Of a DNA stretch of 24,626 bases, positions 120 through 24,361 are shown piece after piece. Location of the stretch: the NCBI GenBank assembly GCA_001929475.1, contig LXFE01000515.1:62001-86626 (forward strand). The letters run 5' to 3'. Under the pieces are notes generated by a model. That model had not been told where the DNA came from, searched no databases, and saw only the letters and a list, made by a program, of their open reading frames with translations. The translations under genes and the position numbers were made by a program. Position 1 is the first letter of the stretch; each line of letters begins with the position of its first letter. The stretch is from Neolecta irregularis DAH-3 (lineage: Eukaryota).

Positions 120-1512
120 TTAAAAAACAGAACCCAACATATCTATCCATTGACACAAGACAGCATTTCCTTCGTCTTCCACGACCTTTTGAAAATCTTC
201 CCATCCCAGTCTTTTGTTTGGATAATCTGCAAATATTTTATCAACGAGTTCGTGAGCGGAAAGAAGAGCAGTTTGTTCCATGACAGCTGCATATTCTTCG
301 TTCATGTGAGAGTGCGACTGCCGAGGCGGGATTAAAGGCATTGTCAAGCTTTTTTCTCGGTGTCGAGCATCTGCAGAAACCGGAGTTACATTGAATGTTG
401 TAGAAATCGGATTTGAACCATGGCCAGTGGTTTCTTGAAGAGTGGCAGCATCAACATATTCATCCGCCAACATCGATTTAATAACGTCCTGAACAAGACT
501 TCGAGAAAGAGTGTGCTGGGCTTTAAGCATTTCAAGAACCTGGGTTTTTGAAATAAAGTCTTTGTTTTCCCAATTGTATCCATTGAAAACAGCTTCCCTT
601 AGTCAGAGTCTTGTTGCTGATAATACCTCTCACTTTTTCTATATGATCTGTCTTTCCCGTCAAAATGTGAATTCCGCGAAGATACTCTGTAAAAGAGATA
701 ACTCCATCATCATCCTGATCGTAAAATGAGAATAAGCGATGAAAAACAAGATTTGAAGCTTGTCCTAGTTGTCCTAAACAAGCGAGAAACGCAATCTTAT
801 CAATCCCACAATTAATCCCAAGGTTGTCCTCGCAATTTACAGACGCGATACAGCTGAACTGATCATAGGCAGCATCAAGCTCGGGCTCCTTGTCTTTCGT
901 CAGAGGAAAGAGGATAAATAGATCTACCATATCCCATCTCTTCAAGTGTTTTCTTTTGTTCCTTTGTTAATCGTGGAGGAACAACAAGATTAGGATTGCC
1001 TAGACATTATTTTGAATTCATCCCTTGATCTAACCAGGATATGCAGGTTTAATGATAGTTTTTGGATTACCTAGAGTAGGTAATGGAATGCGAACTTTGA
1101 AAAATAAATGACTCTTAGCATGAGTTGAGATCGCTTCACATTGATCGCAAAGATCGTAATCTACGCAGTTTGAGCATCGATATCGAACCCCGCGAATCGG
1201 AGAAACATTGCACGAATTACAGCTTATACCGCGATGAACATATCCTTCCTTTTTTGCGTGATCCTACTGGTCAAGGTAAAGCACTCTGACCCAAACCTCT
1301 GCAATGTGATAAAGCAGCTTTAATAGTTGTTCCTCATCACTGGGATTCGAAGGTAGTGCTGCTGAAGCTCCGTTTGAGGTTTGTGACGAATGTTCGTACG
1401 TTTCTGGAGAAGGACGCAGATGGAGATTTCTGGCGAAAGCCCGATATATCTGAACTACAGCGATGGCTCCGATAACGCTGCTTGCTGCTATGATATATGG
1501 TTTCCGGAGCAT
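120..1512 (-). CDS. ZZ-type zinc finger + EF-hand domain protein with N-terminal hydrophobic segment (5 exons)
   Basis: ATG at 1512 (MLRKPYIIAASSVIGAIAVVQIY). The spliced exon 2 encodes HRGISCNSCNVSPIRGVRYRCSNCVDYDLCDQCE (ZZ finger). EF-hand FYDQDDDGVISFTEY follows. GT-AG introns at 1296-1264, 1034-1000, 927-894 and 626-593 join the frames. Stop TAA at 122-120. Confidence 0.85.
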
Positions 1513-1675
1513 TACATAGTTATAGAATCCAAAGAGGTTTCTGTGGAGCCCACTTATATAAGTTACAAGCCGCACCAAGTTACTGCTCTGGTTTTACAGT
1601 TTTCATTGTCAATTCGACCTAGAAGACTAGAACACATAGTGCTTTTACTTATATATTGATTATTTTTTGATATAT

Positions 1676-3311
1676 TCAAACATGAGCCCAGGCCGTCCTG
1701 CGAGCAAGAAGAGCGCCTGCATAAAAAACTCCGAGCCCTGTGATCAAAAGACCGCCATAGGCGGCCGTTGTAAGTAGTCTGCCTTGCCTTTCGCTTTTTT
1801 TCTTTGCCTCAGAATATGGTTTATTACTGAAACTGACCATCGTATACAAAGGAACAACTCCAAGGCTAGGCACTCGTGCGTACAAAAACTCCTCAATTTT
1901 CTTCCGAAGCAGATATGATCTTCTCGTAACTCCAGCTCGCATCTCGACGAAGTTCTGCATTGCGAGATCGCAAATAGCATTGAGATCGACTTTTCTGGAA
2001 TTCTGATAATCGTACAAGGCAATTTTCAAACGCTTCGTCTTGATATTTTCAAATAGTAATCGAACGTCTTCAAATCCGCAGTTCATCCCTTGTCCATAAA
2101 ATGGGACCATAGCATGGGATGCATCTCCGAGAATAACGCATTTGTCTTCCAGAATATACGGGAAACACTGATTGTCAGTACCATTTTTATTGAGACTCAC
2201 CTTGATCGATAACAGCGGAGATCGAGGATTGCGAAAAAAATCTCGTATAAGCTCATCTTTTCCAATCAGTTGAATAGTATCTGGAAAGAATCTCTTGAAA
2301 AACTCAAGTAATGCTTCATTGCTTTGGAGATTATCAAACATCGACTTTGGCATAAATAATGTACAGGTGAATGATTTATCCTGCAAACATGTAAGTTTTG
2401 GTGCATTTCAAAGCCTGGTGGTTATACACTATTGGGTAATGCAATGAGCATGAAGGTCTGTCGGGGCCAGATGTGTAATCGATGTGGCTCCATTTTGAAA
2501 TCTCTCTCGCCGTCAGACGCTGTCCAAGGGGAGATTGTTAGTTCAAGCCAGTGACTATCAATATATTGTTGTTCGAAATCCATACTATCGTGGGTCAGAG
2601 CAAGCTAGTGCTAGAACACTTGCGTAATAACCTTCATGAGGCTTTGTCTGACTTGACTATGTGCACCATCCGCTCCCACAATGAGATGTGCCGTGACATG
2701 CGCTTCAGCTCCCCTGAAATAAATAAGCTCTCAAGAATGCAATTGCACACCTGGTCAAAAAAACCAGCTCATTCTTGCGTAGATCGCAATACTGGAGCTT
2801 GTGCTCGAAATAGAGATCAACGTTGGGATACTTCTTAGCTTCAATGAGTAACTTTGTATTCAGCCAGTCTCGATCAACCGAATTGATGTGCTGTGCAGTG
2901 TATAAGCCTAGAGCAGCCCAAGCATTGAATACCTTTCCGTGAATATCATAGAACTGACTTGTCTGGTTGCCAGCGGTATCATGAATCATTCTAGCACCCA
3001 TTGGGATAGCTTGTGCGAGTATTTCTTCTACAAGATGCGGACTAGCTCCACGTAAGCCATGAATCCCTCGTTCCGAAAGCGCCAAGTTGATAGATTTGCT
3101 GGGAAGTTTAGATTGCCTTGCGACAGTTTCTTCCATTCGCGGGTCTTTTCAAGTTAATGCTGACTCAATTCGAACGATAAATAGAACGACCTTCTCTCAG
3201 TTCGTATAATGAGACTTTCCACCCTTCTTTTGCAAAATATATAGCAGCGAGAGCACCGACAGGACCGCCTCCTACAATTGCGACAGTGCTAATCTTAACG
3301 GCTGAGTCCAT
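1676..3311 (-). CDS. BNA4: Kynurenine 3-monooxygenase (FAD monooxygenase, NAD de novo pathway), 7 exons
   Basis: N-terminal [17 protein letters not shown]-binding motif; [47 protein letters not shown]-terminal hydrophobic anchor. Six short introns, one GC-AG (2623-2585). Confidence 0.95.
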
Positions 3312-21859: not shown

Positions 21860-21885
21860 TTTTAGCCCAAATTTCATGAAATTAG
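21860..21885. repeat. Second copy of palindromic element (TTTTAGCCCAAATTTCATGAAATTAG)
   Basis: 24/26 identity to the reverse complement of 8495-8520; core palindrome AATTTCATGAAATT. Confidence 0.7.
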
Positions 21886-22101
21886 ACCCTATAATTGAAC
21901 ACATACCTACTTTTATAGCCAAAGATTAGATAGACTGTCTATATAATCTTTGTGCGTTAAATGGGAAATGAATATTGTCTTATGTGACATTCATTTGATT
22001 CGTTCACCTTGGTAGGGATTTTTACACATAAATACTTCTGTCCCTGTTATGTCACCATTTTCATGACAATACTAACCAAAAAAACAACTTTCCCACAATT
22101 G

Positions 22102-24361
22102 TTAGTACATAGTGCTTTCTTTCTCATTGGGCATACTGTACCCAGTATTTTTGGCCAGACCCACACGATCAGGATATGGAGAGTCTTGATCTGTGCAATA
22201 AGGCGTAATGCTCTCACTAGGACTACGAATAATCGGTGACGAAGGCGAAGATTCCCTACGCTCAATAGTAGAAGACTCCGAAACAGCTCTTGGAACATCC
22301 CATTTCTCTGCTGGTGCACTCCAGCGGTGTTTCTGAGATTTTCGTATTCGGTCAAATATGTCCAGAGTTGGTGTGCTAGGACTTTTTATTGATCTTTCGG
22401 ATGATTCTGAACGTGAGAGTATTGTAGAACTGACCAATCGCTTAAGAGAAGGTATTTGTATGATCTCATGCCCCGCACCACGCGTTATCATGACGAAAGC
22501 AAGTATTGTTAATAATAGTATCGATTGAGCTATACCAACACGCTTTTGACGAATAACCTTTGAATGTCAACCCGAGTTAAAGTGCGAGCAAGAAGTTACC
22601 TCGTTAGCCAGTACAGTCATACGAGCATTCATCGCTGTCCATTCACGTTCGTGCATTTCCCGTTGTATATTCAACTCCGACATCGTCTCGCGGAAAAGCT
22701 GGTTATACTGTGTACGCTGCAATTTTAGTTATTGCCACTATCAGGTTATATACGAATAGGGATATTTGTGGCAGAACAGTTGCATTGAGATGATCGACTA
22801 TTTTGTATATTTTGTCGGCATGTTTTTTTTCCATTTGGTTGAAGACATCTCGTAGCATGCGAGATTGATCCTCGATATACTGAAGTGAAAGAGTGGCATT
22901 AGTCTCTAAATTTCCGAGACGCTTGGAGATAGCTTTGTAGAAGCTTTCTTGAGTTGAAGGCATTGGAGATATTTGTGATGCTGTTTCAGACGCGATGCGA
23001 GAAGTTTGTGTCTGAAGAGGTGCAGTAACCATAATACGCTCTATTTCTGGTTGGGCTGTTGGGGCTGGAATGGTCACCGACGAGGTCAATGGGCTAATTA
23101 ATAGCACTTGAGAAGTCGATATTTCTGCAAATTGAAATTGACGAGATTTTGGAACTCTTCCAGAAGCAGGACATGAACTTTCTCCTGAATATTCCACCAA
23201 GTCATACCTTTGAGGACTAGACTCAGGTGTTGGTGAGTAGTCTGGTGTATCTCGAGCTCGGTACGGCGAAAACATGATATTGTCGTTATCAGTCTGAACA
23301 TGCTTGTTATCGTCTGGTAGCTCTGTTGTTTGATTCGAAATCCCAGATTTTACGGAAGACTCGTCGGGTAAAGAACTTGTTGCAGTCACTTGAGTAGTAT
23401 CATCGACAATATGGACAGCTTCTTCGTTAAACTTCTCCGGATCTTCTTGTAAACGATATTCTTCCATCATTGTCGTCCCGTGAACCCGTAATAAACTGAT
23501 GGGACAGAAGAATTCAGTACCGTATTGGCTGATAAATTCTATCCGAAGGAACTTTGCCCATATCTGTGGATTGTGGATGGCAAATGCTTGTATTTCCCTT
23601 GCATTACGTGCCTGAAACGTATCAAGTAGCGTCCATGTCGCTGTGGGATAACGATCGCTGACCAAAACACGAAAATCTCGAATCATGCTCGAAAAGAATT
23701 CAAAATTTGCAATAACCACAGTATCTAGGAGGATATGATCGCATAGTTCGATAATAACAAATTTGTCTGGAGCGGAACATTCGTTGAGCATGTAGGAATC
23801 TTTAATTTCGACGAGTATCGAATTTGAACCTTTTGACTCTGGATTCGCCTTTAAAATAGTAGCAGCACAGTCAAAAGATGCGTAGTTAAATCTTTGTTTG
23901 GAAGTCTCACCTGCCTTGCGAGATATTGGCTGTAGCTCCTCAAGTTCCGTATTCGTGGCCTGTTGCGGACTTGAGATTGTCTTTCGAGGTGAGAGATGTC
24001 TAGTAGAATCATCCAGGCTTTCGAGGTTTATGCTCTTGTTGATGTCGTTGGCAAGCTCATCCATGATCTGGCCTTGATCGTTTGTGGGCTGGCGATGGTC
24101 ATAACTATCGGCTTGTTGAGGTGACTGGGCCGAGATCTTGCGCTTCCATTCGTCGAAAGAGAGAAATTGGGACGCCGGATCATCATCAAGTGCAAGTAAA
24201 GGCTCTTTAAGAGCTGGAGGGAAAATCTTGTCCACGGATGAGGGACAGGTATCGTTACCCACCTCCAACCAAGCGAAAAAAGCAGGGTTTAGACAGACAT
24301 CAAGGCCTATGGATAAACATTGACACAGTTGGATTGCTAGCGTCCAGAGCAGCCAACGCAT
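22102..24361 (-). CDS. SLP1: Mid-SUN domain ER membrane protein (Slp1/SUCO-like), at least 3 exons
   Basis: Signal peptide; FLSFDEWK; RFNYASFDCAATILKAN..KDSYMLNEC..ANFEFFSS..CPISLLRVHGTTMMEEY (SUN domain); QESFYKAISKRLGNLETNATLSLQYIEDQS coiled-coil; C-terminal TM segment GIAQSILLLTILAFVMI after two introns. Confidence 0.92.

Follow-up and report, generated by a model that had tools for sequence, protein, structure and literature searches.

Non-GT donors among the very short introns of a gene-dense stretch of the Neolecta irregularis genome

Genes and introns of the window

Neolecta is an early-diverging, fruit-body-forming ascomycete of the Taphrinomycotina. The stretch of its nuclear genome analyzed here, termed the window, comprises 24,626 nucleotides of contig LXFE01000515.1 of Neolecta irregularis DAH-3 (positions 62,001 to 86,626; all coordinates below are those of the window). 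Its stop-to-stop frames contain a dense run of eukaryotic genes, interrupted by very short breaks. After curation, these breaks amounted to 52 introns in 12 genes, and they correspond to very short spliceosomal introns of the major (U2) type with a weak 5′ splice site (G-T-A, then almost nothing). Five of the introns, distributed over 5 of the 12 genes, begin with GC or GA instead of GT; these non-GT donors are the subject of the present analysis. The G+C content of the window was 41-48%. A public tyrosine–tRNA ligase of N. irregularis DAH-3, retrieved with one exon as the query, was 96% identical to the translation of the window, and no relative of more than 60% identity was found in the protein searches. 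Rfam detected no RNA families in the window, hence no small nuclear RNA.

Genes were identified by running Pfam on 58 frame translations, and introns were proposed by a dynamic programming gene modeler that combines codon log-odds with intron signals. When the intron penalty was set low, the modeler returned 158 "introns", mostly false and most of them inside conserved exons, which were discarded; their number shows how little information the splice signals carry. When the penalty was set high, 43 required introns were returned, and these served as the starting set for curation by hand and by homology. The automatic choices 19801-19864, 20012-20090, 15879-15928, and 21581-21624 were replaced after checks with hidden Markov models (HMMs) or Pfam. 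Introns that are in frame and free of stops were added only where homology required them, i.e., 2932-2891 and 2200-2168 in the gene for kynurenine 3-monooxygenase (KMO), 7901-7866 in that for class-II DAHP synthase, and 14381-14416 in that for an RNA-dependent RNA polymerase. In the final set, none of the spliced models contained an internal stop. A Upf2-like fragment (∼5994-6506), which would be a 13th gene, was excluded from all counts. A further automatic choice, 2555-2520 in KMO (minus strand, 36 nt), was dropped as well: it resembles an intron (GT, a perfect ACTAAC, and AG) but must be coding, as it aligns to human and yeast KMO; such decoys occur inside exons because the splice signals are so weak.

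The 52 curated introns were 32-58 nt long (median 38 nt) and had 47 GT, 4 GC, and 1 GA donors, which agrees with the ∼53 introns of 32-58 nt in 12 genes that a first-pass annotation of the same DNA had counted. The GC donors at 2623, 7901, 10868, and 17067 and the GA donor at 21252, which it had pointed out, proved exact in their coordinates, with boundaries that are the best by homology, and every one of the degenerate GT donors on its list was found again (GTGCCT at 4181, GTCGTT at 3190, GTTCGA at 14381, GTAGGG at 3933, and GTGTTC at 20853). The share of non-GT donors in the window was thus 9.6% (5/52; 95% interval 3.2-21%). Its claim that this exceeds the usual ∼1% also held, when set against a published 1.3%: this is the share of GC-AG among the introns of 61 species (PMC3033335), and with 98.7% GT-AG it is also the share of non-GT-AG in fungi (PMC7072748). 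At a rate of 1.3%, the probability of observing at least 5 non-GT donors among 52 is 5.8 × 10−4. The sample is one window of 24.6 kb, which was noticed because of its non-GT pattern, and an excess of such donors throughout the genome is likely, not proven.

Five junctions with GC or GA donors

For three of the five genes (DNA polymerase kappa, KMO, and the coiled-coil gene 7), every in-frame, stop-free model ending in AG was scored against an HMM of homologues, irrespective of its donor. For the other two, all deletions of the same length obtained by sliding the intron along the sequence were compared. It was confirmed that the non-GT boundaries of the first-pass annotation give the gap-free, best-scoring predicted protein at all five junctions.

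The gene for KMO (1676-3311, minus strand) contains introns at 3190-3145 (46 nt), 2932-2891 (42 nt, in frame), 2750-2714 (37 nt), 2623-2585, 2427-2381 (47 nt), and 2200-2168 (33 nt, in frame). Intron 2585-2623 is of the GC-AG type (39 nt, TAC|GCAAGT, branch motif CTCTGAC) and its removal creates the junction LMKVIT|MDFEQQ. GC donor 2623 ranked first among 39 donor-blind models with 121.8 bits (HMM of 70 homologues), the next model reaching 117.0 bits. The best model with a GT donor (2617-2585, 33 nt) reached 115.5 bits, which is 6.3 bits lower, and it adds two residues to the protein. Between DGxxS and MDF lies a spacer of 11 residues in the GC model and in 65 of 66 matched homologues; the GT model makes it 13. 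Moreover, the GC model aligns without a gap to human KMO 5x68_A (K33=185, M8=189). The whole protein scored 673.0 bits under the GC model, compared with 666.7 bits. This six-intron model also scored above those in which one of the in-frame introns was kept (656.6 bits with 2932-2891 and 655.7 bits with 2200-2168).

In gene 7 (10247-11717, minus strand), which codes for a coiled-coil protein that belongs to no Pfam family, the GC-AG intron is the only one (10832-10868, 37 nt, AAA|GCAAGC, branch motif ATTTAAC, junction ARTNRK|ILDLEISNTS). Here, GC donor 10868 was top of 57 donor-blind models with 62.2 bits, followed by a model with 56.8 bits. Models with a GT donor reached 55.6 bits at best (10889-10832, 58 nt), and the annotated one (10873-10819, 55 nt), which loses RKILDLE, only 36.0 bits. 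The motif DLEI[ST]N is present in 144 of 149 homologues, and RK precedes it by two residues in 133 of 137; among the matches listed, [VI]xDLEI[ST]N was found in 47 of 47 homologues, in 45 of them after RK.

The gene for DNA polymerase kappa (Pol kappa; 15757-17698, plus strand) is interrupted at 15886-15936 (51 nt), 15981-16018 (38 nt), 16398-16435 (38 nt), 16493-16524 (32 nt), 17067-17102, and 17281-17320 (40 nt). The fifth of these is the GC-AG intron (36 nt, AAA|GCAGGT, branch motif CACTGAC, junction HLKLKK|HTYEVITR); if it were kept, a TAG would come to lie in frame at 17086-17088. Among 129 donor-blind models, GC donor 17067 was best with 352.3 bits (HMM of 59 homologues), followed by GG 17070 (347.0 bits) and GC 17073 (346.1 bits), and the best GT donor among the models listed would require an impossible intron of 18 nt (341.0 bits). 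Under the GC model, the IMS_C profile is matched from 1-51 and then from 52-103, leaving no gap, and K181 aligns with N395 of human Pol kappa (1t94_A). The search of the downstream exon against PDB gave no match, and the junction was decided by the 59 homologues. The whole protein of the six-intron model scored 713.0 bits, compared with 668.4 bits for the first automatic model.

In the gene for class-II DAHP synthase (6765-8355, minus strand), introns are located at 8235-8193 (43 nt), 8045-8012 (34 nt), 7901-7866, 7811-7770 (42 nt), 7186-7150 (37 nt), and 7063-7024 (40 nt), and the spliced protein covers the Pfam profile at 25-74, 76-129, 130-329, and 353-433. Its GC-AG intron (7866-7901, 36 nt, AAA|GCAATC, branch motif CGCTAAA) is in frame and free of stops. 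In open reading frame 7790-8011, residues 2-67 span just positions 76-129 of DAHP_synth_2, i.e., there are 12 surplus residues. They interrupt the motif AGQYAKPRS known from AroG of M. tuberculosis, and removing 7901-7866 restores AGQYAK|PRS. Of the 36-nt deletions obtained by sliding, this is the sole version that ends in AG, and no GT was found anywhere in 7866-7915.

The only GA donor was observed in the gene for mitochondrial tyrosyl-tRNA synthetase (TyrRS; 20298-21852, plus strand), with introns at 20529-20565 (37 nt), 20853-20889 (37 nt), 21005-21038 (34 nt), 21252-21289, and 21660-21694 (35 nt). The four GT introns match those of the public protein P0001. The exons flanking the GA-AG intron (21252-21289, 38 nt, CAA|GAATGT, branch motif GACTAAT) cover positions 154-224 and 222-291 of Pfam tRNA-synt_1b, and when aligned to 23 solved chains, one ends and the other begins on the same or a neighboring residue in 22 (316|317 in 1y42_X from N. 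crassa and 277 in human 2pid_A; 5ijx_A is ambiguous). Because the exon ends abut, it is exactly 21252-21289 (GA...AG) that must be removed, and among the slid 38-nt deletions this was the sole version ending in AG. The only GT donor that keeps the frame with the same acceptor would define an intron of 26 nt (21264-21289) and add ECHF to the protein. Such an intron would undercut the minimum of the 52 by 6 nt, leaving just 16 nt between the 5′ site and the branch A.

The first-pass annotation had stated that none of the five junctions can be explained with a GT donor without breaking the frame or a conserved motif. In this strict form, the statement did not stand, since in-frame GT-AG alternatives exist at three of them (KMO, gene 7, and TyrRS); what did stand is that each alternative either scores worse against the homologues or is shorter than all other introns. 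In all but one of the five genes, keeping the non-GT intron would truncate the protein or throw it out of frame. Because only their removal yields the conserved protein, and because retention harms four of five genes, the five introns were taken as genuine. The boundaries were picked by protein fit alone. Each of the five introns so defined starts with G-[C/A]-A and carries, 6-10 nt ahead of its AG, a CTRAY-like motif—features that would not be expected of arbitrary boundaries.

Public Neolecta gene models were compared for four of the five genes (all but that for DAHP synthase). None of them uses the non-GT donor, and all are mis-spliced at the respective site. In P0001 (TyrRS), 21252-21289 is read through and a conserved segment of 13 residues is then cut out. 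P0002 (Pol kappa, 685 aa) has a garbled frame around 17067, across IMS_C, and is fused with the neighboring PX gene; in the curated model these are two genes, the first ending at 17698 and the second starting at 17867. P0122 (gene 7) is devoid of RKILDLE, and P0272 (KMO) uses donor 2617, which introduces the extra residues, and retains the in-frame intron 2932-2891. Evidently, the annotation of Neolecta admitted GT donors only, and because it did so, surveys of splice sites that are based on annotation would miss the non-GT donors.

Other genes and features of the window

The remaining seven genes contained GT introns only. Gene 1 (120-1512, minus strand) codes for a protein with ZZ zinc-finger and EF-hand; removing the introns 1296-1264 (33 nt), 1034-1000 (35 nt), 927-894 (34 nt), and 626-593 (34 nt) leaves an open frame, the N-terminus being uncertain. 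The methionine aminopeptidase 1 gene (3526-4853, plus strand) is interrupted at 3683-3720 (38 nt), 3933-3973 (41 nt), 4126-4167 (42 nt), 4181-4225 (45 nt), and 4333-4372 (40 nt), and its product is collinear with the Peptidase_M24 profile (10-55, 60-96, and 99-208). Between its introns of 42 and 45 nt lies a micro-exon of 13 nt (4168-4180, plus strand), which codes for the conserved SVNE. An RPEL-repeat protein, the two halves of which are parallel repeats, is encoded at 9389-10071 (plus strand; introns 9492-9530, 39 nt; 9549-9582, 34 nt; 9811-9848, 38 nt; 9929-9966, 38 nt). The gene-free stretch 5′ of it contains an inverted repeat (9156-9217, plus strand) with arms of 25 nt that are 92% complementary and a loop of 12 nt. 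Neither in 4860-5900 nor in 8400-9350 was a gene recognizable with Pfam or a match obtained with Rfam.

A further gene (11937-15540, plus strand) codes for an RNA-dependent RNA polymerase of the QDE-1 type and is modeled with introns at 12340-12384 (45 nt, in frame, putative), 14095-14134 (40 nt), 14381-14416 (36 nt, GTTCGA, in frame), and 15193-15228 (36 nt). Intron 14381-14416 matches a gap of 12 residues in the alignment with QDE-1 (2j7n_A) exactly (LSG|GDYDGD). The start codon of this gene is uncertain, as are any introns near it; the first ∼700 nt of its long frame (11661-12400, plus strand) gave no matches, and G+C is higher there (0.48) than anywhere else in the window. Downstream of Pol kappa follow a PX-domain protein (17867-18657, plus strand; introns 17981-18018, 38 nt; 18265-18318, 54 nt; 18440-18480, 41 nt; 18543-18600, 58 nt), the frame of which is open after splicing and matches the PX profile, and a DnaJ/DnaJ-X protein (18794-20249, plus strand; introns 18962-18999, 38 nt; 19088-19128, 41 nt; 19184-19223, 40 nt; 19809-19848, 40 nt; 19965-20001, 37 nt). 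The last gene (22102-24361, minus strand) codes for a SUN-domain (Sad1/UNC) protein and has introns at 22753-22717 (37 nt) and 22599-22558 (42 nt).

The Upf2-like fragment (5994-6506, plus strand) was recognized by a match of frame 6131-6469 to positions 3-58 of 133 of the Pfam profile Upf2, and the space upstream is too small for the MIF4G domains that a complete Upf2 would carry. Its first two frames cannot be linked through a GT donor; the modeler took a GA donor at 6133 (GAGACA, 44 nt). The fragment may be a relic or may contain a second GA-AG intron; the gene looks truncated, and its frame is hard to follow after ∼6350.

Donor signals and the reading of the non-GT introns

Among 46 GT donors of a 51-intron set, position +3 was the only informative one (A in 32 of 46; 0.70 bits), with +4, +5, and +6 contributing 0.05, 0.11, and 0.05 bits, respectively. 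Of the 47 GT donors, 21 have G at +5, and the entire site from −3 to +6 amounts to 5.55 bits. The introns have a CTRAY-like branch point, mostly 6-12 nt from the AG. The branch motifs of the GC introns (CTGAC, CTAAA, TTAAC, and CTGAC, 6-10 nt from the 3′ end) are of this usual type, and in all five non-GT introns the branch A, by our own assignment, is 28-29 nt from the 5′ end. Three properties set the non-GT introns apart, all of these contrasts being post hoc and based on five cases; the third, at −1, is taken up below. First, at +3 to +6 they match AAGT in 4, 2, 3, 3, and 3 positions, a mean of 3.0 compared with 1.85 of 4 in GT introns (one-sided P = 0.006). Second, all five are 36-39 nt long, which applies to only 16 of the 47 GT introns (Fisher P = 0.008). 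A better match at +3 to +6 is the usual compensation in GC-AG introns, and it suggests that pairing with U1 and U6 continues to matter, which speaks against a 5′ site that is merely passed over. The suggestion of the first-pass annotation that introns are defined mainly by length and spacing therefore survived in part: the uniform length and branch distance of the non-GT introns are in its favor, the compensation is not. Its further idea, of altered U1, U6, or fidelity proteins, is a conjecture.

The analysis shows where the junctions lie by homology, how many there are, how weak the donor consensus is, and the patterns of compensation and length; splicing of the five introns in vivo, a raised rate of such donors throughout the genome, and the way in which this may have come about are inferred. 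The most probable reading of the sequence, to which we assign a probability of roughly 0.64, is that they are genuine, constitutively removed GC and GA introns, that a mismatch at +2 is tolerated, and that their share is raised in this lineage. In the Neolecta lineage, the 5′ site as a whole would add little to the definition of an intron. A mismatch of U1, and later of U6, at +2 would be tolerated when +3 to +6 pair well and the geometry is optimal (36-39 nt). Under such conditions, changes from T to C or T to A at +2 would be almost neutral, so that they could accumulate to several percent of the donors. A more far-reaching version, which is tentative and which we hold to be somewhat doubtful, has the introns recognized largely by their geometry: with the branch point at a fixed ∼28 nt from the 5′ end and a short distance from there to the AG, position +2 would be only weakly checked, 5-10% of the donors would be non-GT genome-wide—the highest share known for a fungus at ordinary G+C—and approximately one-third of the GT-only public models would be wrong at such sites.

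Several points weigh against a raised share of genuine non-GT introns. The junctions were placed by homology, and in a sample of one window a chance cluster at a genome rate of 2-3% has P = 0.004-0.02. The denominator stems partly from frame logic and splice signals, most GT introns of genes 1, 6 (RPEL), 10 (PX), 11 (DnaJ), and 13 (SUN) having no homologue check; intron 12340-12384 is putative, and any in-frame introns that were overlooked would enlarge the denominator. The GT alternatives at KMO 2617-2585 and TyrRS 21264-21289 are in frame and disfavored by homology, not decisively so. Intron 7901-7866 of the DAHP synthase gene is in frame and stop-free, and its retention would leave the protein whole, albeit odd. 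G at −1, present in 29 of 47 GT donors, is absent from all five non-GT donors (P = 0.013), which are in this respect unlike the classic compensation, AG|GCAAGT. Finally, the branch points were assigned by a simple scoring of our own.

Of the other explanations, an ordinary or mildly raised non-GT rate in Neolecta (1-3%), with real junctions and the window as a lucky draw, survives best, although it is unlikely. The window came to attention through the very pattern in question, the 95% interval extends down to 3.2%, and P rises to 3.8 × 10−3 at a rate of 2% and to 2.0 × 10−2 at 3%; at the fungal mean, the value given above is far lower, and the five cases are in five separate genes of 12. Also against it, in the fungal table of one survey (supplement S16), shares of genes with a non-canonical splice site reach 10-20% at the top, and in S. 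pombe 0.42% of the genes have any such site (PMC7072748). Less likely still is that one or two of the junctions were mis-modeled and use the nearby GT at 2617 (KMO) or 21264 (TyrRS), so that the true count would be 3-4 of 52. Both alternatives keep the frame, the public KMO model P0272 uses 2617, and the window is rich in GT donors no better than GTTCTA. Yet the KMO alternative costs 6.3 bits and lengthens to 13 residues a spacer that has 11 in 65 of 66 homologues, and that of TyrRS, at 26 nt, falls under the 32-nt minimum and inserts four residues that are not in 22 of 23 solved chains.

The sequence is from one assembly, derived from uncultured fruit bodies (PMC5309816), and errors in it, alleles of one field specimen, or pseudogenes might mimic non-GT donors; this is very improbable, because five independent errors would all have had to hit +2 of an intron, four of the five changes put C in place of T, which is the variant classically tolerated, and the five genes are otherwise intact, conserved, and full-length. 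Minor-spliceosome (U12-type) introns are highly improbable, and so is editing of the RNA by which GU would be regained ahead of splicing. No point in support of either was found, editing from C to U or from A to U is not known from splice sites of fungi, and the branch motifs share the CTRAY type of those in GT introns, where a U12-type intron would have a CCTTAAC-like one. Nor do the donors (GCAAGT, GCAATC, GCAAGC, GCAGGT, and GAATGT) resemble the U12-type 5′ signal ATATCC (PMC3033335) or its GTATCC form.

If they are indeed genuine, the four GC introns share with the known U2-type GC-AG introns the G at +1, the C at +2, the AG at the 3′ end, and an ordinary branch motif (PMC3033335). GCAAGT, GCAAGC, and GCAGGT are likewise above average at +3 to +6. 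What differs in the Neolecta window is the share (4 of 52, 7.7%), the uniform length of 36-39 nt, the lack of G at −1, with AAA|GC at three of these sites, and the weakness of GCAATC. The GA-AG intron has its counterpart in Oikopleura dioica and Eurytemora affinis, in which GA outnumbers GC-AG and accounts, in one of the two, for 3.2% of the supported splice-site combinations (PMC7072748). The GA donor, the A at +3, and the AG at the 3′ end are common to these introns and to that at 21252; in contrast, a conserved AG precedes the donor in Oikopleura and Eurytemora (PMC7072748), whereas the single case in Neolecta is preceded by CAA, and the ratio is reversed in the window, with one GA compared with four GC donors. 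An excess of GC donors at the level of a lineage, as seen in the window, has been described for algae: GC-AG introns make up 39.6% in Aureococcus anophagefferens, 22.2% in Micromonas pusilla, and 7.7% in Chlorella sp., and the U1 5′ end of these algae was reported to be unchanged (PMC3033335). In the algae, however, the excess was linked to a genomic G+C content of 66-70% (PMC3033335), compared with 41-48% in the Neolecta window, where it accompanies ultra-short introns and a 5′ site that is nearly free of information. The trend of intron-rich species toward weak 5′ sites fits Neolecta, with its ∼4 introns per gene and degenerate donor consensus, but it appears to concern positions other than the GT and does not predict the loss of T at +2 (PMC8476143).

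In the literature searched, neither a statement on splice sites of Neolecta nor any fungus near this non-GT rate was found. The main text of the genome paper contains neither the word "intron" nor "RNA-seq", and its Supplementary Methods may describe the annotation (PMC5309816); the first RNA-seq data for Neolecta (GSE300630; stranded poly(A), 75-nt pairs, two specimens), published in 2026, were used for expression counts only (PMC13263728). Lineages rich in GC-AG or GA-AG introns are already known elsewhere. Comparative studies of how multicellularity and introns evolved in fungi draw on the Neolecta proteome, and four of its public models are wrong at non-GT sites. Should the rate prove as high throughout the genome, Neolecta would offer a fungal example of relaxed use of the donor dinucleotide that high G+C does not explain. 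Its tiny and uniform introns would then make it a tractable system in which to weigh spacing against U1 pairing in the definition of introns.

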